Assembly: GCA_021775995.1 (NCBI GenBank)
Contig: JAJFGS010000001.1
Coordinates: 10,195-74,194 of the forward strand
Length of the DNA: 64,000 nt
Source: Alphaproteobacteria bacterium
GTDB taxonomy: Bacteria > Pseudomonadota > Alphaproteobacteria > Micavibrionales > Micavibrionaceae
Direction: 5' to 3'
Positions 14,688-47,100 of the stretch are shown here, in pieces; positions within the stretch are counted from its first letter, which is position 1; each line of letters begins with the position of its first letter. Made by a program: the position numbers and the translations under genes. The notes beneath the pieces are model-generated. The model saw only the letters and a list, made by a program, of their open reading frames with translations. It ran no database searches and was not told the origin of the DNA.

Positions 14688-15737
14688 ATGAAACAGGTCG
14701 ATATTGATAGTTTTGAAAAAGAATCTAAATGCACTTACAAGGATGAACATTATTCTGTTCGTGATAACGGGGCGGTGCTTCGCCATACCCCAAAAGAAAA
14801 GAAAAAACGTCCAACAGACTTGAAGTGGACTTTTGGAAAACCAAACATAAAAACTGGGTATATGGAGATTGCTTCTGTTAGGGTGCATAGAATAGTAGCC
14901 ACCGCTTTTCATGGCGAACCGCCAACCCCTGAACACGTTGTTGATCACATTGATACCAACCGTCAGAATAATAGACCTAATAATCTACGTTGGCTAACCC
15001 GCTTAGAAAATGCTCTTAAAAATCCCATTACAAGAAAACGTATTGAATTTATTTGCGGCAGTATTGATGCCTTTATAAAAGACCCTTCAATATTAGGTCA
15101 AAGTACCGTCGATCCGAATTTTCAATGGATGCGTACTGTTACTGTAAAAGAAGCTCAAGCCTGCCGAAAACGTTTGGAATTATGGGCTGAAAGCGACAAA
15201 CAACCCTCTGGTGGCTCTTTGGGAGAATGGGTTTATAAACCTTTGAAAGCCTCAAATCAGCAAGATAAACCATTTCAACCTGCACCGCCGAGAGATCGCT
15301 CAAGCCCTTTGGTCAGAGAAGCAGAAAAGGCACATCGTCTTAATGGCTTAGTGATGGCAAAAACGGAAGGTGCGGCACAACAAAACTGGCAAGTTCCTTC
15401 GGAATTTCCGTGTTGTCCGAACGAAGCAGAGGAAGAGCCAATTAAAGCTTATGCAAAAAAGCTTAAAGTAGGCTCAATCTTTGCAACCAATGACTATTCA
15501 GAAACAGAGGTTTTTAAAGTTGCTACTATAGATGATGGTCAGTCACTATTGGTCATGTGTCTGCAGAAAAAAAGTGGCGTTAAGCCTTGGTCTCTTGCCA
15601 AGGTTTTTTATGAAGACGGGTTATACATTCATACTAGTCTTGGGACTTTCTTTGATGACCAAGGGGCTGAAAAATCGTTTACAATTAAGCAGGGACTTGA
15701 GTGGGCTGGTGGCGATAGTATTGATGATTATTGCTGA
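14688..15737 (+). CDS. HNH endonuclease (HNH_3 / homing-endonuclease-like) with unassigned C-terminal domain
   Basis: It carries HVVDHIDTNRQNNRPNNLRWLTRLEN and an upstream NUMOD4-like YSVRDNGAVL. The C-terminal region of about 170 aa has no motif I recognise. Confidence 0.7.
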   Translation: MKQVDIDSFEKESKCTYKDEHYSVRDNGAVLRHTPKEKKKRPTDLKWTFGKPNIKTGYMEIASVRVHRIVATAFHGEPPTPEHVVDHIDTNRQNNRPNNLRWLTRLENALKNPITRKRIEFICGSIDAFIKDPSILGQSTVDPNFQWMRTVTVKEAQACRKRLELWAESDKQPSGGSLGEWVYKPLKASNQQDKPFQPAPPRDRSSPLVREAEKAHRLNGLVMAKTEGAAQQNWQVPSEFPCCPNEAEEEPIKAYAKKLKVGSIFATNDYSETEVFKVATIDDGQSLLVMCLQKKSGVKPWSLAKVFYEDGLYIHTSLGTFFDDQGAEKSFTIKQGLEWAGGDSIDDYC

Positions 15738-15896
15738 ACACAGTTTAATTGCCATGTATCACGCCCTTCAAAAGCGAAAATTCTGAAGTAATACTCACAT
15801 AACTTGGAACGAATCGCCAAATCCATGACTTCAATATAGAAATTTTACTCCAGAAGTGCTTATCTAGCTGATAAATATAATTAATCGGATAGTAAT

Positions 15897-18800
15897 TTGC
15901 AGCTTTTTCACAATAAAGTATTAAAAAAAATAACAGATACAAAAGCTGAAATTCCAGCCGATCATTTGGCAATTTTAGAAAATTGGTCGCGTTCTATCAA
16001 AGACGGCAGTATTCTAAAACAAAAAGAAACCGCGCTTCATGGTATATTCACTGAAAATATTGTTACCAAAGTATTAGGGTATAAGCCATTCGGCGCAACG
16101 GTTGATCATTATGATGTTGCCGTTGAATATCCAATCGCAGGAACGCGTGTTGACCTTGCTTTGGGTAAGTTTATTGACCCTAACACCCCTGAAAAGAATG
16201 ATTGTATCGCTCCCTTTGAATTAAAAGGGGCAAAAACCAAGCTTAATGCCATTATGTCAGGACGCAATAAAACCCCAGTACAACAAGCTTGGGATTACGC
16301 AATGGACGTAAAAGGCGCAAAATGGGTTCTTGTGTCCAATTATATTGAAATACGATTGTATGCAGTCGGTCATGGTCGAACAGAAGACGATTGCATCAAA
16401 TTTCAATTAGAAACAATAACCGAGCCTGAACAATATCAAAAATTTTACCGACTTCTTTGCAAAGAAAACTTGCTTGGAGGTCAAACGGCAGAGTGGCTTA
16501 AGCAATCAGAAGAACAAGATAAAGACATTACGACCAAGCTTTATCAAGATTATAAAATCATTCGGCATAATGTTATTCACGCCATTACATCTAATAATCC
16601 AGAAGTTGAATTTCAAAATGCGGTAGGAATGGCACAGGTTATTCTTGATCGCGTTTTGTTTATCGCTTTTGCCGAAGATAAAGGCTTATTACCAGACGAA
16701 AGCCTTAAAAAAGCGTATGAATTTAAGAACCCTTACAGCACATCGGATAACCCAAGTAAAATCTGGGATACTTACAAATCTCTCTTCAAATCTATTGATG
16801 AAGGGAATGCTAATTTGGGTATTCCTAAATATAATGGTGGCTTATTTTCTCCAAACGATAATATAGATAATTTAAATTTACCTGATGATATATTCCAAGG
16901 GTTTAAAAAGATTGGTGATTATGACTTCAAGAGTGAGGTTGGTGTTACAATATTGGGGCATATTTTTGAACAGTCAATTTCTGATATTGAAGCCCTTAAA
17001 GAATTTGGTGATTTAAACCTTAAGAAAAAAGACGGTAAGCGTAAAAAAGAAGGCGTTGTTTATACACCTGACTCTATCACGCGCTTTATTGTTGAAAAGA
17101 CGTTGGGCGAATATGTCATTAAATGCCGTACAGAATTACTAGAAGAATTTATTACCAAAGGTAGTTGGCAACAATTTACAGCGGGTAGTGCCGTAGGTGA
17201 GCCATTAGCAAAATGGAAGTCTAAAGCCGCAGAGCTTGAATATTGGCGTGCTTATCAAGAACTTCTTAAAACCATTCGTATTGTTGATCCTGCCTGTGGG
17301 TCGGGAGCGTTTTTGGTGGCGGCGTTTGATTATATGTATGGCGAATATGACCGCGTGAATATGCGTATTGCAGACTTGCGTGGTGGTACAGGTGATGTTT
17401 TTGATCTAAACAAAGAGATTCTGAATAACAACCTCTATGGTGTAGATGTTAATGAAGAATCCATTGAAATTACGAAGTTGTCATTGTGGTTAAAAACAGC
17501 GCAGCGCGGTAAAATCCTTAATTCATTGGATGATAATTTACGCGTGGGCGATAGCGTCATTGAAGATTCCAGCTTTACCCATCGGGCTTTTTCATGGAAA
17601 GAAGCTTTCCCTGAAGTATTCAAGGATGGCGGCTTTGATATTGTTTTAGGAAACCCGCCTTACGTGCGCCAAGAATTTATATCCCCTATGAAGCCATATT
17701 TAGAAAAACGATACGAGGTTTATAATGGTGTTGCCGATCTCTATACCTATTTCTTTGAATTGGCATTGCGGATTCTAAAGCCCAATACAGGACGCATGGG
17801 CTATATCAGCTCCGCCACTTTTTTTAAAACAAGTAGCGGTGAAAATCTTCGTAAATATTTAAGTGAAAAATCACAAATAGATACGATTATAGATTTTGGC
17901 GATGTGCAGATATTTGAAGGTGTGACGACCTATCCCGCAATTTTTGTTCTTAATAATAAATCAGTCAATAAAGACCATAAGATTGATTTTTTAAGCCTGA
18001 CTTCAAAACCAGAAGAAGATATAGCAAAGATGTTTACCGAGTCTGCTTTGTCTATGCCACAAAAGTGGTTAGGTGTAGAACAATGGAATTTACAAAGTGA
18101 AGAATATCAGAATATTTTAATAAAAATTAAGTCTAGAGGTACTAAATTAAAAGAGGTAAAATCCTCTCCTCTTAATGGCATAAAAACAGGACTTAATGAA
18201 GCGTTTGTAATTAGTGAAAATGAATATAAATCTTTGATAAAAAAAGATCCTAAATCAAATCATCTTATAAAACCTTTCTTAGAGGGCAAAGATCCCAAAA
18301 AATGGAGAGTAGAATCTAGAAAAATTTATATAATTTTAATTTCGAATGGTTGGACTAAATCCCAAATACAAGCTTCAAGCGAAAAAGATTCTTGGAATTG
18401 GTTTTGTAATAATTATCCTGCAATTTCAGAACATTTGGAAAAATTTGAAGAAAAGGCTAGAAAGAGATATGACCAAGGAGATTTTTGGTGGGAATTGAGG
18501 GCTTGCGCCTACTTAGAAAAATTTAAAAAAGAAAAAATTATATGGTCACATTTTCAGAGCGAGCCGTTCTTTTCGTATGACCGAAATGGTTATTATCTAA
18601 ATAATAAATGCTATATTCTAGATGATGTCGGTTTCTATGAGTTAGCTATATTTAATAGTAATGTTAATTGGTTAGTATTTAAGTCGATGACCACTATGGT
18701 TCGGGGTGGTTATTATGAAGCAACAACTCAAAATACAGAGCAATTTCCTATCCCTGAAGCATCTGATACAGAAAAAACGCTTATCGGCTCATTGGCGGAA

Positions 18801-19145
18801 CAAGCGCAAGATACTGCCGAACAACGTTATGCCTTGCAGGAACAAGTGCGTAATCGTATCCATGACATTGCCCCAGAAGGCAAAGCATTTGATTTAAACA
18901 ATAAACTCAAATCTTGGTGGATGCTTGATTTCAAAGAATTTCAAAAGGAAATCAAAAAAGTTTTTAAACGTGAATTAAAACTATCAGAGCGTGATGAATG
19001 GCAAACCTATATCACCGAAAAACAAAAACAGGTAGAGGCACTAACAAATACCCTGACAGCAATAGAAAATGACCTAAATACCGAAGTCTATAAACTTTTC
19101 GACCTCACCCCTGATGAAATAAAACTAATCGAGGAGAATGTCTGA
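15897..19145 (+). CDS. MmeI-like type IIG/IIL bifunctional restriction endonuclease / N6-adenine DNA methyltransferase
   Basis: TTG start. The N-terminus has PD-(D/E)xK-like VDLAL...FELKGAK, then QQAWDY...VLVSNY. The helical spacer carries YNGGLF. SAM motif I is VDPACGSGAFL and motif IV is NPPY. A C-terminal target-recognition region and coiled-coil tail end in LFDLTPDEIKLIEE. Confidence 0.8.
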   Translation: MQLFHNKVLKKITDTKAEIPADHLAILENWSRSIKDGSILKQKETALHGIFTENIVTKVLGYKPFGATVDHYDVAVEYPIAGTRVDLALGKFIDPNTPEKNDCIAPFELKGAKTKLNAIMSGRNKTPVQQAWDYAMDVKGAKWVLVSNYIEIRLYAVGHGRTEDDCIKFQLETITEPEQYQKFYRLLCKENLLGGQTAEWLKQSEEQDKDITTKLYQDYKIIRHNVIHAITSNNPEVEFQNAVGMAQVILDRVLFIAFAEDKGLLPDESLKKAYEFKNPYSTSDNPSKIWDTYKSLFKSIDEGNANLGIPKYNGGLFSPNDNIDNLNLPDDIFQGFKKIGDYDFKSEVGVTILGHIFEQSISDIEALKEFGDLNLKKKDGKRKKEGVVYTPDSITRFIVEKTLGEYVIKCRTELLEEFITKGSWQQFTAGSAVGEPLAKWKSKAAELEYWRAYQELLKTIRIVDPACGSGAFLVAAFDYMYGEYDRVNMRIADLRGGTGDVFDLNKEILNNNLYGVDVNEESIEITKLSLWLKTAQRGKILNSLDDNLRVGDSVIEDSSFTHRAFSWKEAFPEVFKDGGFDIVLGNPPYVRQEFISPMKPYLEKRYEVYNGVADLYTYFFELALRILKPNTGRMGYISSATFFKTSSGENLRKYLSEKSQIDTIIDFGDVQIFEGVTTYPAIFVLNNKSVNKDHKIDFLSLTSKPEEDIAKMFTESALSMPQKWLGVEQWNLQSEEYQNILIKIKSRGTKLKEVKSSPLNGIKTGLNEAFVISENEYKSLIKKDPKSNHLIKPFLEGKDPKKWRVESRKIYIILISNGWTKSQIQASSEKDSWNWFCNNYPAISEHLEKFEEKARKRYDQGDFWWELRACAYLEKFKKEKIIWSHFQSEPFFSYDRNGYYLNNKCYILDDVGFYELAIFNSNVNWLVFKSMTTMVRGGYYEATTQNTEQFPIPEASDTEKTLIGSLAEQAQDTAEQRYALQEQVRNRIHDIAPEGKAFDLNNKLKSWWMLDFKEFQKEIKKVFKRELKLSERDEWQTYITEKQKQVEALTNTLTAIENDLNTEVYKLFDLTPDEIKLIEENV

Positions 19146-21421
19146 TGGAAAATGGTATTCAAAAAATCTCAAAATTGAAAAAATTTGGAATTTACAAAGA
19201 TTTCTCATGGGGCGATTTAACTGACTTTAAAAAGTCTGGTCTTATTTATGGTTGGAATTATTCGGGGAAAACCACACTTTCTAAATTGTTCCAGATTTTG
19301 GAATTTCAGGAAGATAGAACACGATTTGAAGAATCAGAATTTAAAATTGATTATGTAGAAAATAATGTTTCAAAGTCAGTTACAAAAGCTAATATCACCA
19401 ACTTTCCCTTTATTGTGAAGGTTTTTAATTCTGATTATATCTCGCGAATTTTTACATGGGATGAGCCTGAATCATCTTTCGATCCAATATCCTTCTACCT
19501 TGGTGATCCTGCGGGAGACATAGATAAGAAAATCAAAAAACTAGAGAGCGATAATAAAAGATGGAAATCTATTTTAGAAAAACGCCATCAAAAATCTATC
19601 GATTGCTTTGCAGAGTATGAAAAAAATAATGGTAAATTTTCATCAAAATCAAAAAATATAAGAGAAGAATCCTTACCAAGATTATTGCAACCGCATGAGT
19701 TCAATAAATCTAAGTTTTCAGATATTGCGAACGAGGTGTTAGATGACTTAGATAGCCATATCTTATCTGAAGAAAATAAAGAAATTAACAGAAGAGGCGC
19801 GTTAGCAACTAACACGTACGCACCTCAACAAGAAAACTTTGATTATTCTAAAAACTTAAAAGAGCTATCGGGTGCTGTTAAATCTATATTGGAAGATAGT
19901 GCGCCGCAATCCATTGCTTTGCCGAGTTTAGATGCTAATGAAGAACTTTTTAAATGGGTGCAAGAGGGACTAAAGTTTCACCAAGATAAAGATGAGTGTC
20001 AATTTTGCACTGAAAAAATACCAGAAAATAGAATGTATAATCTTAATGCTTATTATTCTAAAAAATTAAAGGAAATTCAGGCATCAATTAGTTCTGTTAG
20101 TCAGGAAATAACTAATGATAAAACAGGTTTAGATATTAATTTCCCAAAAGTTGATGAATTGGCGGAAGAATATAAAGAAAAGTATTCCCAAAAAATAAAA
20201 GCATATAAAAATGATGCTTTAAAATATCAAAAACAACTTGAAGTTTTAGAAAAAGACTTAAAACGCAAGCCAGAAGACTTTTTTAATAGTATCGATGCTA
20301 CTGAAATAGTAGATATATCACTTAAAAGCAGTATTGAGGCTATAGAAGCGATTATTAAAGAGTTCAACATTTGGATAAACGCTTTTGACCAAAGAAAACA
20401 AGAAGCTTTAGATAGAATTTTAAAGCATTATGTGGCTGAATATCTGAAAGCTGAGAATTATATTCCTAAGAAAAAAGCAGCAGAGCTAGCAGAAAAAAAT
20501 AAGCTTCTTATTGAAGCTCAAATTTCTAGTAATGAAGAGGAAATTCAATCTTTAAATGCTCAGTTAAGCGATAAAGTTCAGGGACAAGAAGAGCTTAATC
20601 AAAGTCTTAAAATATTGCTTAATAGAGATGATATTAAAATTGAGATAGAAGAAGAAAAATTTATATTAAAACGAAACGATTATCCCGCTTATAGTTTAAG
20701 TGAAGGAGAAAAATCTGCGATAGCCTTTTCATATTTCTTAACAGAGTTGAAGTCTCTTAAAAAAGAAGGTGACATAGAAAAGACTATATCTTTTATTGAC
20801 GATCCTATATCGAGCTTAGATAGTAACCATGTTTTTCAAGTACGTTCATTAATCAGTAATTTCTTTAAAAACTGTGATTATTGTCAGCTATTTGTTTCGA
20901 CACATAACTTTGAATTTTTCTCAATGCTATTAGACAGTAAAACTTTTGGCCGTATTACTAGTAGCACCCAAGAAGATAAAAGAAATCTGTACTTTATAGA
21001 AAGAAGTAAAGAGGGCGCAGCAATTATTAAAAAACTACCTAAATCTTTTAGTAGCTATAAATCGGAATATGTAGGTTTATACTCTATATTAAAAGACTAT
21101 AGAGATTTAGCTGATAAAAACGATTACCCGAATGTTTTAATTTTACCAAACGCCTTAAGACGTTTTGTTGAATTATATACATTAATGAAATATCCCAGTG
21201 ATACTGAAGTTGATGATAGGATTAATCATATCTTTAGTCCCAATAGTCAAACAAAGCATAATACTAAGTTATTGCATTGGTTTTCACATCAGAATGAATT
21301 TGAAAAAATTCAAACTCATGATGGAAAAATTCTTCAAATTGAAGAAGCTATAGATGAATTACTCACTCATATTGAAAACGAAGACAAACTTCATTGGGAA
21401 GGCCTTCAAAAAGTCGCTTAA
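19145..21421 (+). CDS. AAA_13-family ATPase, RloC/PrrC-like candidate anticodon nuclease
   Basis: Walker A is GWNYSGKTT. A CxxC (ECQFC) sits in a long Lys/Glu-rich coiled-coil stretch. LSEGEKSAIAF is ABC-signature-like, and Walker B is ISFIDDPISSLD. The C-terminal NALRRFVELY...HWFSH resembles the PrrC/RloC nuclease region. The start overlaps the upstream stop (TGATG). Confidence 0.7.
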   Translation: MENGIQKISKLKKFGIYKDFSWGDLTDFKKSGLIYGWNYSGKTTLSKLFQILEFQEDRTRFEESEFKIDYVENNVSKSVTKANITNFPFIVKVFNSDYISRIFTWDEPESSFDPISFYLGDPAGDIDKKIKKLESDNKRWKSILEKRHQKSIDCFAEYEKNNGKFSSKSKNIREESLPRLLQPHEFNKSKFSDIANEVLDDLDSHILSEENKEINRRGALATNTYAPQQENFDYSKNLKELSGAVKSILEDSAPQSIALPSLDANEELFKWVQEGLKFHQDKDECQFCTEKIPENRMYNLNAYYSKKLKEIQASISSVSQEITNDKTGLDINFPKVDELAEEYKEKYSQKIKAYKNDALKYQKQLEVLEKDLKRKPEDFFNSIDATEIVDISLKSSIEAIEAIIKEFNIWINAFDQRKQEALDRILKHYVAEYLKAENYIPKKKAAELAEKNKLLIEAQISSNEEEIQSLNAQLSDKVQGQEELNQSLKILLNRDDIKIEIEEEKFILKRNDYPAYSLSEGEKSAIAFSYFLTELKSLKKEGDIEKTISFIDDPISSLDSNHVFQVRSLISNFFKNCDYCQLFVSTHNFEFFSMLLDSKTFGRITSSTQEDKRNLYFIERSKEGAAIIKKLPKSFSSYKSEYVGLYSILKDYRDLADKNDYPNVLILPNALRRFVELYTLMKYPSDTEVDDRINHIFSPNSQTKHNTKLLHWFSHQNEFEKIQTHDGKILQIEEAIDELLTHIENEDKLHWEGLQKVA

Positions 21422-21457
21422 AAGAAATTATTAATACAAATAAAAGAGATATAGAAA

Positions 21458-23164
21458 ATGACAAAGAAAATTAGTGCTGCAGAACAGCCTTTATCAAAGA
21501 TATTTAGTTCAGATTTTGAATATATTATTCCGTCATATCAACGCCCCTACGCTTGGAGTGTTTTAAATACTTACGATTTATTTGATGATTTATATGATTT
21601 TTATAAATCAGGGACAGATGAAGGTTATTTTCTTGGTAGTATTGTTTTAATCAAACAAGAAAATAAGGCATTTTCACAAGTTATTGATGGCCAGCAAAGA
21701 CTTACGACATTAACTATTTTATTGGCCGCAATAGCTTCAAAAATGAGCGGTGGAAGCCAAGAACGCTTAAAGCAATACATAAAAGAACCAGGAAATCATT
21801 TTGAAGGATTAAAATCTAAGCCTAGATTGACGTTACGCGATAAAGATAAAGATTTTTTTGAAAAATATGTTCAGTCTTTAGATTTTGATGCATTACATAA
21901 ACTTGATCCTGAAACACTAGCTAGCGAAGCACAAAAAAATATCTATAAAAATAGTAGAAGTATTTTATCTTGCCTTGATAAATATTTTCCTACCGACCAA
22001 GAGGAACTAACCTCGTTTACAAGTTTTATCTTACAACGTTGTTTTCTTGTTGCTGTATCAACGCCAAGCCAAGAATCTGCATTTCGTGTATTTTCCGTTA
22101 TGAATACTAGGGGTATGAGTTTGCAAGCTACAGATATTATAAAAGCCGATATAATTGGTCAAATTAAAGATGAGTTACAAAATAATGCTTATAATGAGCG
22201 TTGGGAAGATATGGAAGTGGAGCTTGGTCGCGATGGGTTTAATGACCTCTTCTCTTATATTCGTATGATTTATAGTAAAGAAAAGGCTCAACGCTCTATT
22301 TTAGAAGAATTTCGTACGCACGTACTATCTAAAGTTTCCTCCCCTACAGGATTGATTGAAACAGTTTTAGAGCCTTATGCTGATGCCTTAACCATTATTA
22401 AGAAATCTAACTATCAAGCTTCATCTAATGCTGAAAATATTAATGATTATCTGAAGTGGTTAAACCGTATTGATAATTCTGACTGGATACCTCCAGCAAT
22501 AAAATTTTTATCACAACATAAAAACAATCCTGAATATGTAGATTGGTTTTTTAAAAAACTAGAACGTCTTGCTGCGTACTTGCATATATGTAGCAAAAAT
22601 ATTAATGAGCGTATTTCAAGGTATGCGGGACTTTTAGAAGAAATGGAAAAACCTCACAGTTTTTTAACACCTCTAGAAAGTATAGAGCTTACAAGTGCTG
22701 AAAAAATGCTGATGAGTCAAACCTTGAATGGGGATGTATATGAATTAACCGCTCGTCGTAGAAATTATATAATTCTTCGGCTTGATGCTTTTATGTCAGA
22801 TGGTGCTGCTACTTATGACCCTTCAATTTTAACGATTGAGCATATTTTACCTCAAACGGTAAACCCTGATAGCGAATGGGCAAAAAATTGGCCTGTAATT
22901 GAAAATAGGCAAGAGTGGGTTCATCGAATTTCTAATTTAGTTCCCCTTAATCAAAGGAGAAACTCACAGGCACAAAATTTTGATTTTGAAAGAAAAAAAT
23001 CTGCATATTTTACTGGTAAGAAAAAAGTCTCTTCATACATTTTGACAACACAAGTTTTAAATGAAGAAAAATGGACACCTAGCGTAGTTGAAAATCGCCA
23101 GAAAGAATTATTATCTGTAATGAATGATAATTGGGAATTAAATGAGATTTCTTCAATAATTTAA
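21458..23164 (+). CDS. GmrSD-like DUF262/DUF1524 nuclease (type IV restriction family)
   Basis: DUF262 motifs IPSYQRPYAW and DGQQRLTT are present. The C-terminal DUF1524 His-Me finger is IEHILPQ ... NLVPLNQRRNSQAQN. Confidence 0.8.
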   Translation: MTKKISAAEQPLSKIFSSDFEYIIPSYQRPYAWSVLNTYDLFDDLYDFYKSGTDEGYFLGSIVLIKQENKAFSQVIDGQQRLTTLTILLAAIASKMSGGSQERLKQYIKEPGNHFEGLKSKPRLTLRDKDKDFFEKYVQSLDFDALHKLDPETLASEAQKNIYKNSRSILSCLDKYFPTDQEELTSFTSFILQRCFLVAVSTPSQESAFRVFSVMNTRGMSLQATDIIKADIIGQIKDELQNNAYNERWEDMEVELGRDGFNDLFSYIRMIYSKEKAQRSILEEFRTHVLSKVSSPTGLIETVLEPYADALTIIKKSNYQASSNAENINDYLKWLNRIDNSDWIPPAIKFLSQHKNNPEYVDWFFKKLERLAAYLHICSKNINERISRYAGLLEEMEKPHSFLTPLESIELTSAEKMLMSQTLNGDVYELTARRRNYIILRLDAFMSDGAATYDPSILTIEHILPQTVNPDSEWAKNWPVIENRQEWVHRISNLVPLNQRRNSQAQNFDFERKKSAYFTGKKKVSSYILTTQVLNEEKWTPSVVENRQKELLSVMNDNWELNEISSII

Positions 23165-23174
23165 TTTTTAAAAG

Positions 23175-23852
23175 ATGGCAAAAAAAGAAGAAAATGCGGA
23201 TTTTTTAAAACCTATTACAAAGGTTCTAGATGCTGACCCCAGAACAAATAGCTTTGTTAAATATAACAGTACAAAAGGCACATGGGATAACTTAAGTATT
23301 GAAGATTATCATAATGATGTTCAATACATTAATTTAAATGCAAGCGTTCCTGAAGATATATTAGTTCATTTTGAAACCGCTAAAAACCTTCATCTATACT
23401 CTTGGTTTGTATATCGCTTTTTTCCTATTGCTGATCAACAAGCAATGTTTTGTGTTGAGTTTGCTTTACGAGAACGCTTTAGAGATGATGAAAATGCCCC
23501 AAGAAACAAAACCTTAAAGAAATTGTTAAATTATGCAATTAAGACATCAAGAGTGAAAAATGAAGGGTTTAGCGTATGGAAAAACAGAGTGCGGATGAAC
23601 AGTGAAAATAGACATAGATTTGATTTAATAAAGAAAATGAATGATGAAGGTTTAGAAGAAATTATTATTGATGAGTCTGATATAGAAATTAAAGAAGAGG
23701 ATATGCAGTTTAATTATGTTGAAACATTGAAAGAGAGTTTACCTTTTCTAAGAAATGAGTATGCACACGGCAGTTCAATGTTACACAATCATTCTTTAAC
23801 GACCATTATAATTGCTTCTGAAATTATTAATCAGCTTTATCCTGAAGCATAG
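23175..23852 (+). CDS. hypothetical protein with C-terminal R-x4-H (HEPN-like) motif
   Basis: 225 aa with no TM helix, starting 10 nt after the preceding stop. LRNEYAHGS (Arg codon at 23751-23753, His codon at 23766-23768) is the minimal HEPN signature. The rest is unrecognised. Confidence 0.5.
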   Translation: MAKKEENADFLKPITKVLDADPRTNSFVKYNSTKGTWDNLSIEDYHNDVQYINLNASVPEDILVHFETAKNLHLYSWFVYRFFPIADQQAMFCVEFALRERFRDDENAPRNKTLKKLLNYAIKTSRVKNEGFSVWKNRVRMNSENRHRFDLIKKMNDEGLEEIIIDESDIEIKEEDMQFNYVETLKESLPFLRNEYAHGSSMLHNHSLTTIIIASEIINQLYPEA

Positions 23853-23931
23853 AAACTACCCACTTGATTTATTTTTCATATAGTTTACTTTGGCGGTAAT
23901 TCTAAATCTATTTATTCTCTCCCCAAACAAG

Positions 23932-23944
23932 AAACCGTAGGTCG
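23932..23944 (+). repeat. 13-nt direct repeat of the tRNA-Trp fragment core (aaaccgtaggtcg)
   Basis: This is an exact copy of 24090-24102. It is preceded by tctcc..aaa, which loosely matches the anticodon-loop part of the fragment. Confidence 0.5.
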
Positions 23945-24082
23945 CAAATGGGACACTCATGGGACACTAGAAGTTCAAAAGAGGGTGTAAGCAGTAACTA
24001 TTATGTTAATATAAAGTTAACTAACTTATTGATAAATAATTAAAATTATTATTATATATTTTTACCGTTTTCCGTAATTTAA

Positions 24083-24129
24083 GTCTCCAAAACCGTAGGT
24101 CGAGGGTTCAAATCCTTCTGCCCCTGCCA
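24083..24129 (+). other. 3' half of tRNA-Trp(CCA) without a 5' half; putative att site (attR-type) remnant
   Basis: The sequence is GTCTCCAAAACCGTAGGTCGAGGGTTCAAATCCTTCTGCCCCTGCCA. It reads as anticodon loop CTCCAAA, short variable region, T-arm GAGGG-TTCAAAT-CCTTC, acceptor 3' strand TGCCCCT, discriminator G and CCA. The expected 5' strand AGGGGCA and a D-arm are absent from the AT-rich DNA upstream. Confidence 0.7.
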
Positions 24130-24171
24130 TTATCTTTAATCCATTGATATCAGAGAATTTATGCTCGTAAG

Positions 24172-24196
24172 CCCTGCATGTTGCGGGGTTTTGTGT
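24172..24196 (+). terminator. intrinsic terminator downstream of the tRNA-Trp fragment
   Basis: The stem is CCCTGCA/TGCGGGG (7 bp including one G-U), with a 3-nt loop followed by TTTTGTGT. Confidence 0.5.
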
Positions 24197-24330
24197 ATGG
24201 GGGTGTTCCGTCAATAAATCTCTTTAAAAGCCAGTGAGGAAATGTCAGTATTCCTAATGATCACTCTGTAACTCAATAGGATAATTAAGCGAATTGAAGA
24301 CTAGATAATTAAACCAAAGGAGATAAATAA

Positions 24331-25899
24331 ATGGAAATGCCGTCACATGATTTTGTAATGACCAGCTTGGACTATCTTTCAACTTTATTCGTATTTTCTC
24401 TTGGTCTTGGTTTTTTGGTCGTGATTATCATGTTCATACTGGATGTAACTCAGACGAAAGATGCAGTTCGTAAGAACTATCCCGTCGTTGGTCGTTTCCG
24501 TTATTTATTTTCAACGCTTGGTGAATTTTTCCGTCAATATTTCTTTGCGATGGATCGAGAAGAAATGCCTTTTAACCGGGCCGAGCGTGAATGGATACAT
24601 AGAGCTGCCCATAACCGTGATAACACAGTGGCATTTGGGTCGAGTAAGAATCTAACCCCACCGGGCACAGCTATTTTTGTAAACTGCCCTTTTCCAACTT
24701 TGGATGAAGATGCGGTTGAAATGCAAGCTCTCCAAATTGGTCCATATTGTAAAAAACCTTATGATGCTCCATCTTTTTTTAATATTTCAGGGATGAGCTA
24801 TGGTGCTCTTTCTACGCCTGCTGTCAGAGCTCTGTCAAAGGGTGCAAAAATGGCAGGGTGTTGGATGAATACAGGGGAAGGGGGGCTATCTCCCCATCAT
24901 CTGGAAGGTGGTGCTGACATTGTGATGCAAATTGGTACGGCCAAATATGGTGTGCGTGATGAAGCAGGTAATTTATCTGATAAAAAATTAAAAGAAGTGG
25001 CAGCTCATGAACAAGTCAGAATGTTTGAACTCAAAATGAGTCAAGGAGCGAAGCCTGGAAAAGGTGGAATTTTACCTGCGGTTAAAGTTACGCCAGAAAT
25101 TGCAAAAATTAGAGGCATTGCCGAAGGAAAAGATTCCATCTCTCCAAATCGTCATCCTGAAATTGACGATGGTGCTGAAATGCTGAATATGATTAATCAT
25201 ATTCGGGACGTTACAGGAAAACCGACTGGGTTTAAGGCTGTGGTAGGTACTTTTGGTTGGCTTGAAACAATGTGCCAAGAAATTCATGTACGCGGCATTG
25301 AAAGCGCACCTGATTTTATTACAATTGACAGTGGCGATGGTGGAACGGGTGCGGCGCCAATGCCGCTCATGGATAATGTTGGATTGGTTATTAAAGAATC
25401 ACTTCCGATGGTTTCAGATATCCTACATAAATATGGTTTGCGCGATCGGATTAGAGTTATAACATCAGGAAAACTTGTGACACCATCGGAAGTAGCGTGG
25501 GCCTTGGCAACCGGGGCAGATTTTATCACATCTGCGCGTGGCTTTATGTTCTCACTAGGCTGTATTCAGGCGTTAAAATGCAACAAAAATACTTGCCCAA
25601 CAGGAATTACAACCCATAATCCACGCTTACAAAAAGGGTTAAATCCCGAAGACAAGTCTGTAAAAGTAGCTAGTTATTGCAAAAACATGATTCATGAGGT
25701 GCAGATTATTTCTCATTCTTGTGGTGTAACACGCCCTCGTTTAATGCGGCGTTACCATGTGCGCATTGTGCAGAATAATGGTAGATCGATACCAATGGAT
25801 GAACTTTACCCGCGTCCTGAAGTTCTATCTGAATATAAGGCTACTGCTGAAGCGTTGGCTCCGGAGCCTGAGAAGATACAAGGCGGTTATTGTGCCTGA
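24331..25899 (+). CDS. FMN-binding glutamate synthase family protein (GltB domain-2-like) with N-terminal TM anchor
   Basis: It carries SGMSYGALS, NTGEGG, KMSQGAKPGKGGILP and DSGDGGTGAAP, the characteristic segments of this family. Confidence 0.8.
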   Translation: MEMPSHDFVMTSLDYLSTLFVFSLGLGFLVVIIMFILDVTQTKDAVRKNYPVVGRFRYLFSTLGEFFRQYFFAMDREEMPFNRAEREWIHRAAHNRDNTVAFGSSKNLTPPGTAIFVNCPFPTLDEDAVEMQALQIGPYCKKPYDAPSFFNISGMSYGALSTPAVRALSKGAKMAGCWMNTGEGGLSPHHLEGGADIVMQIGTAKYGVRDEAGNLSDKKLKEVAAHEQVRMFELKMSQGAKPGKGGILPAVKVTPEIAKIRGIAEGKDSISPNRHPEIDDGAEMLNMINHIRDVTGKPTGFKAVVGTFGWLETMCQEIHVRGIESAPDFITIDSGDGGTGAAPMPLMDNVGLVIKESLPMVSDILHKYGLRDRIRVITSGKLVTPSEVAWALATGADFITSARGFMFSLGCIQALKCNKNTCPTGITTHNPRLQKGLNPEDKSVKVASYCKNMIHEVQIISHSCGVTRPRLMRRYHVRIVQNNGRSIPMDELYPRPEVLSEYKATAEALAPEPEKIQGGYCA

Positions 25900-40747: not shown

Positions 40748-41112
40748 GACGGACCCCAGATTTAGTTAATTATTATTATTGATGTAACGAAAAAATACAA
40801 AGAAGACAATAGAAAAAGAGGACAATAAAAGAAGTTATTTACTCCTAATAATTGACTTAATATAGCTTTTTTGACCCTATTTTACAATAAATAACCCTAT
40901 ATTATTTTTGTAATATAATTGCGTATTGCCAATTATTTAAAGAATCCTTAATTTATTATTGCAAATAGGCCAAAAAAGTGGCATTAGAGCCTTATATTCC
41001 ATTTGTAAAATATTGCTTGAAAGGCCATAAATGGCTCTAAGCATAGAAAACACTGATTTAATTTAAACCATTTCATATTTTGAAATGTAACCTGAATTTA
41101 ACGGAGAAAAAA

Positions 41113-44100
41113 ATGACCCAACATAATCACACCAATAAAATTGCTCATATATTAGGTGGCGCAAGTAAAAAGCTTTTGGCAACGACAGCGATGACGGCAG
41201 TTGGCCTTCTTGCCATGTCAGGAAATGCGAAAGCTGATAACTGGGTTGATTTGTCAACAACGTCTGGAAGTACGACGACAGATCTTAGTCAAGCGAATAC
41301 AACTAATCTTGGTATAAATTCAGGCAGAGCGGTTGTTGAAGGTGATTTGGATATTAATGCAAATTGGACAGTTAATGTTGGTAAAGGTGATTTGGTTGCT
41401 ATCGATCGTGAAAATGATCCGACATTTATTTATGGGCGTTTAAATTGTGCGGGTTCTTGTCATGTTTTAGATAACAATGGTGTTTTCGTTGGTGAAGGTG
41501 GATCTGTTGATGCTGTTGGTATTGCAACATTGTCCGATGGTGAACTGATGGATACAACGCGTTTTATGGAGACTGGCGATGTGACGCTAGGCAACTTTTC
41601 TAACGTAAGTACTGGTGTTACAAATAAAGGTACAATTACTGCTGGTTTTGTAGGCTTAGTTTCTCCTGTCATCAATAATGACGGTCTTATTAGTGCCAAA
41701 ATGGGTAAAGTCGTTATGGCGGCTGGTGAAGTTGTTACGCTTGATATGTACGGTGATGGTCTTGTTGAAGTTGCCGTTGATGGAGAGTTGGCCGATGGTT
41801 TAATCCAAAACACTGGTAGAATTGAAGCAGAAGGCGGTGAAGTTCTTATCACTGCTTCCGTTGCTAAACAGGCTGTTGAGAATGTCATTAATATGGGTGG
41901 TGTTGTTGATGTTTCTTCGGCCACTGTTAAAGGTGGAAAAATTATTCTTTCTGGTGGTTCAAAAGGTAAAGTTACTGTTGCTGGGAAGTTGAAAGCTTCT
42001 GGTACAAAGGGTGGTAACGTCGACGTAACTGGTCAAATTGTTGACATCGCTGACACAGCAGAAATTACGGCTGATGGTGATAACGAAGGTGGTAGAGTTT
42101 ATGCTTACGGTACAGACAAAGCTATTTTCCGTGGAAGCATTTCTGCACGTGACTTAGCCGATGGCGGAAACGGTGGATTTATAGAGGTTTCTGGTGAAGA
42201 TCTTAAATTGGCTGGTACGGCACTTGTTGGGCAAGGCGGTACAATTGTTTATGATCCGCACACACTTAACATTGATGCAGCAGCGGCAGCATCGCTTGTT
42301 GTATCTCTGGGTGGTGGTGGAACAATTATTGCTCAGGCACGTAACACAATTAATGTGAATGCTGCGATCGATTCTTCCGCACAGGCCAACGTGGCAACAT
42401 TGCGTTTGAAAGATCAAAACAGTAATGGATTTTTGCGTGTTAATTTGAATGATACAATTGTACTCGGTGCTAGTCAGAATTTAATCGGGGACGGAACAGA
42501 AGTTAATGTTGCGAGCACTGGTTTAATTCAAAACGGTGTTGATGTTTCAGCTTCTGGTGCAACTGTGAACGTTGCTGATGGTACTTATAATGAGTATATT
42601 CTTGTTGATAAAGCGCTTACGCTTTTAGGTGCGAACGCTGGTGTTGATCCGAATGCTGGTCCACGTGGTCCGGAGAGTACAGTTTTTGCTGCTCCTGGTC
42701 CATTCGGTACAGCTTACGGCTTTAAAGTCACATCAAGCGACGTCACTATTGATGGCTTCAATATTGATGCCGATGGTGCGGGCATTACGCTTGATGGCGG
42801 TGTCGGCGGCACAAGCAACCTGACGGTTAAAAATAACATTATTACAACCCAAAACATTGTTGACGCCGATGATGAAGGTGTTCAGGGCGACAATGTTGAC
42901 AATGTTGTGGTCATGAACAACCAGCTCAACACAATTGGTAACTCAGCCATTAGATTTGGTGGTTCTTCCAATGTTGATGTCCTGGGTAACGTCATCAACA
43001 ACCCAGATTCTGATGGCGTTGTATTCAATGACGTGACGGGCGGTCAGATTGACGGCAACACAATCAATGATACCAATGTTGGTATCAGAGTTACGGACTC
43101 TGAAGATATTCTTGTCGGTAACAAAGACGGCGACAATGATAATGGTAACACTGTTGACGGTGCGGCAACTGGTGTTGAGGTTAACGGCGGCGATGACATT
43201 GAAGTGGTTGATAATACGATCACTGATGTTGATAACGGTGTTGTAGCAAATTCTTCCGAAAACATTCAGATTGCTGAAAACTCAATTACTGGTTCAAGTT
43301 CTATCGGTATTGATGTTGATGATTCTGAAAGTGCAGATATTGACAACAATATTGTGACGCATTTCACAACTGGTATCCAGGTGACAGATTCTGATTTGGC
43401 TGACATTGAAGGCAACACTGTGACTGACATTACAGCCAACGGTATTGAAGCTGATGGTTCTCTTGGTGTTGACATCAAAGACAATAATATTGGTAACGCT
43501 GCCGTTGCAGGTGACATTGGTGGCGATGCTGTCCATGTGACAAATAGTGTGGCTGCAGACGTTCGTGGTAACACAATCCGCAATGCTGATGGTGACGGTA
43601 TTGAACTGATTTCTTCAGATTCCGCAACTGTTGGTGGTCTGGGTGTTGGTGATGCCAATAATATTGCCAACGTTCTTGGTCATGGTATCGCATCATTCTT
43701 CGGTACATCACCTGATATTATCGGTAACATTGTTAGCCGTATTGGCATGAATGGTATTCACCTTCAAGATGGTACCGACGCGCAGGTTCGTTCTAATACT
43801 GTTAGCAATACAGTTGGTGATGGTATCGAATCCAACAACAACTTTAATATCCAGATTACTGATAACATGATTGGTACTGGTAGCTTTGCGAATAATATTC
43901 GTGGGCAAGGTGTAGACGTAAACGGTTCAGATAATGCTGACATTCTGCGCAATACTGTTACTGAAACTGTTGGTATTGGTGTTTCTGTTAACCCAAGCGA
44001 TGATGTTGTGATTGATGACAACACAATTAGCAATACAGACCAACATGGTATTCATGTTCAGGGCGGTAATGATATCCAGATTACGAATAACAATTTGACC

Positions 44101-47100
44101 AACACAGGCGCGTTTGGTTGGAGTGGTATTGTTACTAATGGCTCTACGCTAGTTCGGATTTTGTCCAACGTTATTAATGGAACTGGCTGGGACGGTATTC
44201 AAGTTGCTAATGGTTCAGACATTGAAGTTAGAGATAACGATCTTGATAACATCACAATCTCTGGTATTGCTGCACTTACAGTTGATGATGTTCTGGTTGA
44301 CAACAACACAGTGGATGTAGCTCAACGTGGTATCTACACGGGCAATGCAACAAACACAACATTGAATAACAACAATATTGATACAACATCCAATGATGGT
44401 ATCGAAGCGAATAACAGTGCCAACATCCAAATTACAAATAACAAAGTGGGTACAGATGCTGGTGCTTTAAATATTGGTGCAGAAGGTATTGATGTAAATA
44501 ATTCACCAAGTGCTGATATTTTGGGCAATATGGTCAACAATACCGGACATAACGGTATTTCTGTTAACCCAAGTCCGGGCAGTATTATTAATGGTAACAC
44601 TATTAATAATGCCGGTTGGGATGGTGTGAACGTTTCTGGTTCTGACAATGTTCAGGTCATTAACAATATAATCACCAATACGTTGGGAGCATCTGGTGTT
44701 GCCATCATTAATTCTGCAGATGCGTTGGTTGATAACAATGATATCGATCGTTCAGCCCGTCTTGGCGTTTATGTCGGTAATGGCGATCGCGTTAATATTA
44801 ACAATAACCGCATCACAAATTCTGGCCTTGAAACCGGTCTGGATTGGAGCGGTATTCAGATTGAAGTTTCAGATGCGGGTAGAGTGACAGATAATGTTGT
44901 TAGATATGCAACACTGGACGGCATCAATCTTGGCGGGCCTATTAATACTGTGAACGGTGGTAACACGGGTCTGTTTGTTGTTGATAACAACAGAGTCGAT
45001 AACACAGGTCGCGATGGTGCCCATGTGGTTTCTACTGACAATGCTCAGGTAACGAACAACCGTATCGGTACAGTCGGCGGTGCGAATAATATTGGTGATG
45101 ATGGTGTTCACATTAATGGCTCTAACGGTGCTTTGGTTAATCTCAATACGATTGTCAATACAGTTGGCGCTGGTGTTCACGTTAACCCATCAAGTGGTGT
45201 AACGGTTAGTAACACCACGATTGATAATACTGGTAGTCACGGTATCTTTGTTGAAGATAGTGAAAATACGAACATATTGACCAATTTAATCGGAACCAAT
45301 GGTGGTGCTGAAAACATTAATGGCGACGGTGTTCTACTGGATAATTCTGATGGTAGTAACATTAAAGGCAACACAATCACAGAAACCAAATCTCCAGCCA
45401 ATGGCTTCGGAAGTGGTATCCAGGTTGTTGATAGTGATGATGTAACAGTTGGTGGAGATGGTGCTGATAAAAACTTCATTAAAGGTGTTGATTGGGATGG
45501 TATTCGCGTTGTTAATGCCGATAACATCAATATCCGCAAAAACGAAATTACAAATGTTGAGCGTACAGGTATCTTTGGTAAGGATCTGACAAACAGCAGA
45601 ATAGTACGCAACATTATAGATGGTGCGAAGAAATTCCACGGTATTCACTTGAAGAATGGCGACAATGTTCTTGTTCACCGTAATAAAATTGATGATGTTA
45701 AGAAAAATGGTATTCTTACTGATGGCACTGCCAATCTGACAGTCAGCAAAAATAATGTAGATACGACAGGTATTGACGGTATTCACATTAAAGCTAGCCA
45801 TGGTGCTCAAGTTACTGAAAATAAAGTAGGTACGGATGCTGGGCCAGCCAACATTGGTGAAGACGGTATTCACATTAACGGTTCTAACGGTGCTAATGTT
45901 GCTGGTAACACTGTGAACAACACTGTTGCTAACGGTATCCTTGTAAACCCAAGTGATAATGTTCAGGTTCATGACAACATCATTGCTGATGTTGCTGAAA
46001 ACGGTGTTAAAATTCTTGGTGGAACGGGTCACGATGTCCGTCGCAATAATATCCGCCGCGCTGGAAATGACGGTATTACCATCAGAGATCATGAGGGTGA
46101 TAAATTCGGTTCTGCTTGGATTGCTTATAATGATATCAAATGGACTGGTGATGACGGTATCCACGTTGAAAACGGTAACTTTGTTTCTATCTATGATAAC
46201 TACATTGATCTATCTGGTTTCTTACCAAATCCGGGTCCTTTCCCAGCGAATGTTGAAGTTGGTAAAGATGCTAACGGTATTTATGCAGAAAATATTGGTG
46301 GCGGTGATTTACCACCTCTTGCTGAAGAGTCTGAAGGTTTTGGTCACAGCTACTATGGTGCCGCTGTTGAGATCCACGGCAATGATATTGCCAATGTTGA
46401 AGATGATGGTGTTCAGGTTAAAGACAGCGACTCTACCTATATCGGACGCAACATTATAGGTCACGTTGGCGATGATGGTGTCGATGTTGATGATGTTGAT
46501 TACACTAAAGTTGCACACAATGCTGTTACATTGGCTGGCGATAAAGGAATTACCATTGATGGTGGTCACTATGCAGGTGTCTTTGATAACCGCGTTCTTT
46601 TGACTGGTAGTGATGGTATTCAAGTTGAGAATGTTCGTTACGACCATGAGACAGACATTGCTGCGTTTGGTGATGAAGAATATGGTCATGGTTGGGCTGT
46701 GAATGTCTCTGGTAACGACGTCGCTTTGACTGGTGATGATGGTATCGAAGTTCGTAATAGTGATGCAACGAAAGTTCAGAAAAACAATGTCTTTATGGCA
46801 GGTTTAGGTGAAGGTTTTGGTGGAATTGTTGACACAATCAACAGTTTTGCAAGTGAAACGTTTAATCCAGCTCTTGCTTTCGCAGCAGCGCCAAAAGTTG
46901 TTCCTGAAGAGTATTACAACGGCTTTGAATGGGAATGGGGCAATGGTCATGGTATTAATGTCCATGGTATTGACGGTGCTTACTACAGCCCGAATGGCTG
47001 GGCGGCTGATATTCGCGGTAATAACGTGAAATACACAGGTGGTCACGGTATTCGCGCTGAAGACAATGATCGTACACGCATTAATAATAACACTGTGAAA

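Follow-up and report, generated by a model that had tools for sequence, protein, structure and literature searches.

Genes referred to as 'restriction-linked', which include the Campylobacter rlo genes and PrrC and to which HEPN genes were later added by Anantharaman et al., have been described in or beside restriction-modification (R-M) loci (PMC2610378, PMC3710099, PMC12707154); the rlo name itself stands for 'restriction-linked orf' (PMC2610378). In PrrC-EcoprrI, an anticodon nuclease (ACNase) with an ABC-ATPase domain is silenced by a type Ic R-M enzyme; PrrC is about 400 amino acids (aa) long, has no coiled-coil/zinc-hook insert and is invariably encoded inside type Ic hsd loci. RloC, described from Geobacillus kaustophilus and Acinetobacter baylyi, combines ABC-ATPase motifs and a long helical insert bearing a CxxC motif with a triad of the pattern Arg-X3-Glu-X36-52-His, often with Ser before the His (PMC2610378). 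RloC is reported to be controlled through its ATPase domain and zinc hook, and not by a linked R-M enzyme (PMC3458546, PMC3710099). At least sixteen HEPN clades are linked to R-M loci, and not all HEPN domains are catalytic (PMC3710099). BrxU and other GmrSD homologues work independently within defence islands (PMC12707154). Here we describe four consecutive genes, g1 to g4, which encode a predicted type IIG R-M enzyme followed by putative members of the RloC, GmrSD and HEPN families. They lie in a 64,000-nucleotide (nt) stretch of DNA (the window) from an alphaproteobacterium of the Micavibrionaceae (contig JAJFGS010000001.1, positions 10,195 to 74,194), to which all coordinates refer unless another contig is named.

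The block is probably a horizontally acquired defence islet of ~8.3 kb that ends at a tRNA-Trp scar and forms a stack of self-contained modules, not an obligate four-gene machine. Its genes are:

15897-19145, + strand: g1, 1082 aa, TTG start, predicted type IIG restriction-methylase
19145-21421, + strand: g2, 758 aa, Rad50-like ATPase of putative RloC type with an anticodon-nuclease-type C-terminus
21458-23164, + strand: g3, 568 aa, predicted GmrSD-family enzyme
23175-23852, + strand: g4, 225 aa, HEPN-like protein

An earlier note on this DNA had read these genes as a candidate composite anti-phage system and had proposed looking for the same gene order in unrelated genomes. The four genes were found together only in two contigs (L005 and L006) that are 100% and 99.98% identical to the window. 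Neither the set nor its order was present in any of 80 g4 loci (10 kb around g4 in species-representative genomes, covered by tblastn, phmmer and family profiles) or 79 metagenomic g2 loci (42 of which had a scored upstream neighbour). As far as these surveys can test it, this is the outcome that the note itself had named as refuting the composite system, which is therefore not borne out. The block had no nucleotide match in a plasmid collection. The best PADLOC hits fall into single-gene classes (REase_MTase_IIG, PDC-S06 and HEC-06/mREase_IV), the top model for g3 being 'Orf5'.

Exchange of individual parts is visible in two further contigs. L007 matches the window at both ends of the block, namely over 15796-19148, which holds g1 (72% aa identity) with a leader of ~100 nt, and over 23163-24122 (79.5% nucleotide identity), which holds g4 (75% aa identity), a spacer and the tRNA scar; its middle differs. 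The homology of L088 with the window (97.3% nucleotide identity) extends exactly from 19150 to 21422 and comprises the g2 open reading frame (ORF) alone. As L007 keeps the g1 and g4 ends around a different middle and L088 shares only the g2 ORF, the sequences indicate a conserved frame, consisting of the IIG gene at the 5' end and of g4 and the tRNA scar at the 3' end, in which cargo is swapped at gene borders. In the window this cargo would be the gene pair g2 and g3. The non-coding parts of the frame are:

15796-15896, + strand: conserved leader/promoter region 5' of g1, where nucleotide homology to L007 (72.7%) begins ~100 nt before the g1 start
23853-24082, no strand: conserved spacer without coding sequence that separates g4 from the scar; it contains the tgggacac(t) doublet and repeats 13 nt of the scar
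24083-24129, + strand: 3' fragment of tRNA-Trp(CCA), a scar of attachment-site (att) type at the right end of the islet, read from the sequence

The middle cargo of L007 (L007:6071-9974) encodes an FRG-domain protein (PDC-S15), a HAD/PNKP-like phosphatase of 150 aa and an unrelated AAA_13 protein of 871 aa, which belongs to another PDC-S06 subfamily. The presence of a phosphatase of the tRNA-repair (PNKP) type beside a putative anticodon nuclease is curious. In L088 (metagenome contig ctg580730_14x_c, 7993-12277), the g2 copy follows, at a distance of 15 nt, a complete type II-A retron composed of an NDT_II-A effector (290 aa) and RT_II-A (308 aa), in an integrase-bearing island. A 225-aa ORF of this contig was considered as a copy of g4 and was found to be unrelated to it.

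The foreign origin of the block is indicated by its G+C content (GC) of about 0.33 against 0.39-0.43 in its surroundings, where the flanks hold ordinary efflux and metabolic genes. The note's statement that the DNA is more AT-rich than its flanks was correct: GC is 0.332 for the block, 0.393 for the whole window and 0.40-0.43 for the flanking genes. The individual values for g1, g2, g3 and g4 are 0.362, 0.304, 0.329 and 0.308, and the 8-kb stretch of minimum GC in the window begins at 16501. GC at third codon positions is 0.22-0.30 in the four genes, consistent with Lys/Asn/Ile-rich proteins. The genes on both sides are of ordinary chromosomal type: two AcrB-type pumps, an OEP, an SBF symporter and a cation-efflux protein are encoded on the left, and on the right a glutamate-synthase-like protein, proteins of sulphur transport and a PALP enzyme.

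The four genes are packed on the same strand exactly as the note had placed them, with intergenic spacings of -1, 36 and 10 nt by their ORF coordinates. The stop codon of g1 (TGA, 19143-19145) shares one nucleotide with the ATG of g2 (19145-19147), giving TGATG, and a GAGGAG Shine-Dalgarno sequence is located just 5' of this ATG. A scan of the block for promoter and terminator consensus sequences gave counts no higher than in shuffled sequence, so that the operon structure is supported by spacing alone. From this tight spacing, g1 to g4 are likely to be co-transcribed from a promoter of g1.

All four domain guesses of the note stood up to profile searches or inspection of the translations: g1 as IIG, g2 as AAA_13 with RloC hallmarks, g3 as GmrSD_N plus GmrSD_C, and g4 with its R-N-x3-H motif. 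The product of g1 is predicted to be a single-chain type IIG restriction endonuclease and gamma-class N6-adenine methyltransferase with its own target-recognition domain. It matches the PADLOC model REase_MTase_IIG (PDLC03609) with an E-value of 2.8e-150 over residues 38-1080, and Pfam models Eco57I (8e-44), N6_Mtase (1.6e-19), MmeI_Mtase (3.7e-15) and TaqI_C (1.5e-9, residues 792-952). The translation contains VDPACGSGAF (motif I) and GNPPYV (motif IV), and the N-terminus contains RVDLAL...FELKG, a D...ExK arrangement that is kept in L007; no curated nuclease-domain model matched the N-terminus. There is no separate methylase or S subunit gene adjoining g1, its neighbours being the gene of an HNH protein and g2. 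With type IIG enzymes of the Eco57I/MmeI kind g1 shares the single chain, the N-terminal D...ExK, the NPPY methylase core and the TaqI_C-type recognition domain. The note had called it MmeI-like; the type IIG assignment holds but this label is loose, as the best Pfam match is Eco57I, MmeI_Mtase scores 56 bits (cut-off 27) while MmeI_hel, at 22.9 bits, stays under its cut-off of 27, and a search of PDB sequences returns BseCI, TaqI and BrxX and does not retrieve MmeI. g1 is probably not a close relative of MmeI. Compared with its L007 homologue, g1 is nearly identical in the methylase core and differs most in the target-recognition region, where a change of specificity would be expected to show. 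No g1 relatives were found among 2.9 million viral contigs.

The product of g2 is identified by Pfam AAA_13 (E-value 6e-104) and by PADLOC PDC-S06 (2e-121), the PrrC model giving a partial match within the ATPase (residues 497-634, 1e-14). In an alignment of 31 homologues, the ABC-ATPase motifs are invariant (Walker A G36-K42-T43, LSEGEK at 518-523, D552-D553-P554 and S585-T586-H587), as are a zinc-hook motif (C285-x2-C288) and the C-terminal residues R672-x3-E676-x38-S714-H715. The AlphaFold model, of moderate confidence (predicted local distance difference test, pLDDT, 74.6), shows an ABC head divided by a 370-aa helical insert (residues 122-492) with the CxxC motif in the central loop of the insert; its best fold matches are Rad50 heads (6e-7), and the g2 profile matched none of the PDB sequences. 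On sequence grounds, g2 has every hallmark of RloC, namely the ABC-ATPase motifs, the long helical CxxC insert and a triad of the form Arg-X3-Glu-X38-(Ser)His, and does not conform to PrrC. As with RloC and the Campylobacter jejuni 'restriction-linked orfs' rloC/E/G, its relatives are occasionally inserted beside R-M genes, but the linkage of RloC in the 2008 paper involved type I loci plus one of type III, whereas the neighbour of g2 is a single-chain type IIG gene. The subfamily of g2, PADLOC PDC-S06, is a candidate class, and no functional data on it were found in the literature. With PrrC-EcoprrI, g2 shares an ABC-ATPase and ACNase-type protein with a catalytic triad of the same type, encoded immediately beside an R-M gene and probably co-translated with it. 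It differs from PrrC in its length and 370-aa insert and in having a IIG gene in place of a type Ic hsd locus as its neighbour.

Among the 79 g2-family loci, a Methylase_S gene (type I hsdS) was located directly upstream of the g2 relative in nine and a IIG-type gene in four to five others (L101, L115, L139, L149), most of these R-M/g2 junctions showing stop/start overlaps of 1-4 nt. The note had proposed a single-chain type IIG enzyme as the partner of an RloC/PrrC-like protein, and the recurrence of this arrangement lends some support to such a pairing, as judged from gene order. Other g2 relatives are solitary among housekeeping genes. None of the 79 loci contained a relative of g4 or a GmrSD gene downstream of the g2 relative, and the downstream neighbours belonged to no recurrent family. 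In four loci (L110, L126, L128, L140) DUF262 proteins of other architectures are encoded upstream. Putative GmrSD neighbours in L112 and L118 were rejected, as these genes encode a UvrD helicase and an HNH protein. L126 (687-10000) is a type I locus with the order hsdR, a DUF262+Schlafen/AlbA_2 protein (713 aa), hsdM, hsdS and a g2-family AAA_13 gene; it thus carries two embedded riders, of the same module types as in the window, but the order and the DUF262 architecture differ.

g3 is predicted to encode a type IV restriction endonuclease of the GmrSD family (DUF262 + DUF1524). Pfam models GmrSD_N (3.8e-39) and GmrSD_C (2.9e-27) were matched, as were PADLOC Orf5 (6e-165), HEC-06 (2e-63) and mREase_IV; the parent system of 'Orf5' (PDLC02686) was not found in the literature. 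The translation contains IDGQQR and IEHILP, the latter corresponding to the EHxxP motif of the DUF1524 His-Me nuclease (PMC12707154). g3 shares with GmrSD/BrxU the DUF262 DGQQR and DUF1524 EHxxP motifs in one chain of ~570 aa, although its similarity to solved members is distant (PDB sequence matches were the DUF262 protein 9jfl, E-value 1.5e-12, and SspE). By analogy with BrxU it lies in a defence island next to a methylation-based system and probably acts independently of it. Unlike in the BrxU setting, its closest relatives (78% and 68% identity) are found in R-M loci that resemble type III, where they are flanked by the genes of a Mod-type methylase and of Res; a relative with 65% identity is solitary. 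The type III-like loci L174 (2035-12724) and L176 (7284-11974) have the order SNF2 helicase, DUF4391, N6_N4 methylase, GmrSD and ResIII/RE_endonuc, so that a type IV enzyme related to g3 is housed within a type III-like R-M locus.

The product of g4 had no match at default thresholds in Pfam, PADLOC or NCBIfam, and none to the curated HEPN families HEPN_Apea, Swt1, RiboL-PSP, LA2681 and Abi_2. Its family is large: one search returned 469 homologues and an exhaustive one 1818 clusters at 50% identity, nearly all of them stand-alone proteins of 200-260 aa. In 36 diverse homologues the HEPN-type RNxxxH motif (R193-N194-x2-A-H198-G-S) is invariant, together with E67/T68/N71 and E95/R99. The model is all-helical (pLDDT 90.5); a Foldseek search of PDB gave no hit with an E-value below 1, seven of the 32 weak hits being HEPN proteins, and a search of the viral BFVD structures gave nothing significant. 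Sub-threshold Pfam matches of the family include six HEPN families among 19, with HEPN matches in 12 member-family pairs; against PDB sequences, the profile returned chance hits only, such as ThyX. On the strength of its motif and of these sub-threshold matches, g4 is a probable member of the HEPN superfamily.

No AAA_13 or GmrSD gene was found within 10 kb of the g4 relative in any of the 80 genomes surveyed. An HsdM-like gene lies within this distance in 24 loci (tblastn). Direct upstream neighbours on the same strand (n=42) included ten Methylase_S genes (type I), three N6_Mtase, one type ISP and two RAMA genes, the remainder being of defence type (HEPN_LA2681, DUF4357, NERD) or housekeeping genes. 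The start of the g4 relative is often no more than ~35 nt from the stop of hsdS. Downstream neighbours were varied (Fic, DUF4238, Hypoth_Ymh, AbiEi, Mrr_cat). With the R-M-linked HEPN neighbourhoods of Anantharaman et al. (2013, PMC3710099) g4 has in common the Rx4-6H signature and the character of a small, helical, stand-alone protein, and members of its family often come right behind type I hsdS or another R-M gene. Only four g4 relatives were found among 2.9 million viral contigs, and the plasmid collection gave one weak partial protein match.

g2, g3 and g4 all belong to the 'restriction-linked' genes, which recur as insertions within or beside R-M loci of various types. Judging by family membership, g1 would methylate host sites (m6A) and cut unmethylated incoming DNA, and g3 would cut DNA with modified cytosines that would escape g1. 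g2 may act as a back-up that disables translation: its Rad50-like ATPase with the zinc hook would sense DNA damage or the failure of restriction, and would then release a tRNA anticodon nuclease, making it a suicide tRNase of the RloC type. g4 could provide a second abortive effector of RNase type.

That the four proteins cooperate as an obligate, integrated defence system is very improbable. Their tight same-strand packing, their common low GC and functions that are complementary on paper would suit such a system. The set was seen only in contigs identical to the window, no co-occurrence was detected in either survey, g2 is exchanged as a single ORF, the middle of L007 differs and the best PADLOC hits are in single-gene categories. 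Modularity is indicated by the close relatives of g2, g3 and g4, each of which occurs in unrelated contexts. Several observations weigh against an islet of fully self-contained modules. Coupled expression is suggested by the junction of g1 and g2, where stop and start share 1 nt, and by the gaps of 10-36 nt, and g2-family genes lie directly after an R-M gene in ~14 of the 42 scored loci, mostly with overlapping codons, so that g2 might depend physically on g1 in a PrrC-like manner. g1 and g4 are similarly diverged between the window and L007, and could be functional partners beyond providing the frame. L007 is the one other contig with close relatives of both g1 and g4, gene calls around the surveyed relatives relied on a crude longest-ORF rule, and the HEPN assignment of g4 is built on a motif and matches below threshold.

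The main rival explanation builds on this dependence and is unlikely in our judgement. It holds that g2, and possibly g4, is physically restrained by the type IIG enzyme, as EcoprrI restrains PrrC, until inactivation of g1 by an anti-restriction protein of a phage sets it free; g1 and g2, with or without g4, would then form the true system and g3 would be an independent rider. This is the behaviour for which PrrC is the precedent and which has been proposed for R-M-linked HEPN genes (PMC2610378, PMC3710099). It would agree with the R-M-adjacent g2 relatives described above and their short overlaps, with the ten g4 relatives directly after hsdS, and with the different AAA_13/PDC-S06 protein that L007 keeps inside the same frame of g1 and g4. 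Most g2 relatives, on the other hand, have no R-M neighbour, and the copy with 97% identity works, or at least persists, beside a retron with no R-M gene nearby. An obligate dependence on R-M is made less likely by such free-standing copies and by the one next to a retron. The rival is also opposed by the reported control of RloC through its ATPase domain and zinc hook, and adjacency by itself is no proof of interaction. A wider form of this idea, which we regard as doubtful, is that the g4 family at large consists of R-M riders: HEPN RNases held latent by type I, ISP or IIG enzymes and freed when restriction is inhibited, the frame of g1 and g4 serving as a docking site for defence genes that are swapped at ORF borders. 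It is quite unlikely that some of the parts differ from their domain guesses, for example that g1 is a methylase only or has an inactive nuclease, or that g4, in place of an RNase toxin, is a non-catalytic HEPN-like regulator, immunity or specificity factor of R-M loci. The N-terminus of g1 has no curated nuclease-domain match, g4 has no significant structural or profile match and non-catalytic HEPN domains exist (PMC3710099); against this, the D...ExK of g1 is kept in L007, the full-length IIG profile aligns from residue 38, and the invariance of R, N and H of g4 across 36 diverse homologues argues for catalysis.

If the block is a stack of modules, as we prefer to read it, it shows that defence genes can look like a tidy 'operon' without forming a system: three of the four would be independently mobile riders of R-M loci. 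Each module is of a known kind and their combination is not conserved. Current concepts of layered defence are unchanged. Three points are modestly new and may be useful for the cataloguing of defence systems: genes of the RloC-like PDC-S06 class repeatedly come straight after a single-chain type IIG gene, as they do after type I loci, which extends the known theme of the 'restriction-linked ORF'; a widespread HEPN-like family with no curated model is found preferentially after R-M specificity and methylase genes; and one defence gene, g2, has been exchanged between islands, the breakpoints coinciding with its start codon and its stop codon.

The note described the right end of the islet as a tRNA-Trp remnant, which could be verified in part. 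A 3' fragment can be read at 24083-24129 (gtctccaaaaccgtaggtcgagggttcaaatccttctgcccctgcca); it corresponds to the 3' two-thirds of tRNA-Trp, with the CCA-anticodon arm, the T arm and the 3' strand of the acceptor ending in CCA, and is shared with L007. It is not called by ARAGORN, which reports zero tRNAs in the whole window, or as a tRNA by Rfam on 23800-24400, and the 5' half was searched for and not found. L007 terminates in the same fragment, in which an A-T pair of the T stem is replaced by C-G, a compensatory change on both sides, and the contigs L005 and L006 break within it. A search for att direct repeats flanking the island gave chance-level AT-rich matches only. These observations together, including the missing 5' half and long repeats, fit a putative attachment-site scar of an integrase-less island remnant.

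Part of the scar is copied 158 nt upstream as a 13-nt direct repeat (aaaccgtaggtcg, at 23932-23944 and 24090-24102), and the tgggacac(t) doublet lies at 23950-23975, between g4 and the scar; both are kept in L007. They could represent a second att scar and binding sites of a recombinase or regulator. A hairpin followed by a T tract is located 3' of the tRNA-Trp fragment, at ~24172-24198. At 24029-24198 Rfam reported a PrrF-like match of 31 bits, below the gathering score of 90. This match, which was treated as spurious, covers the tRNA scar together with a palindromic AT-rich stretch and the hairpin with its T tract; its most likely source is the former terminator of the tRNA, not a small RNA.

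Immediately to the left of the islet, where the note had placed an HNH endonuclease gene, a gene at 14688-15737 encodes a 349-aa HNH_3 protein (E-value 1.6e-17; 'homing endonuclease' in PADLOC). Its GC of 0.41 is host-like, it is the sole member of its 90% cluster, and ~240 of its C-terminal residues have no domain match; the islet as it occurs in L007 lacks this gene. Elsewhere in the window, an ORF of 3445 aa with a TTG start (41080-51417) contains many right-handed beta-helix/NosD repeats and probably encodes a giant surface or secreted protein.

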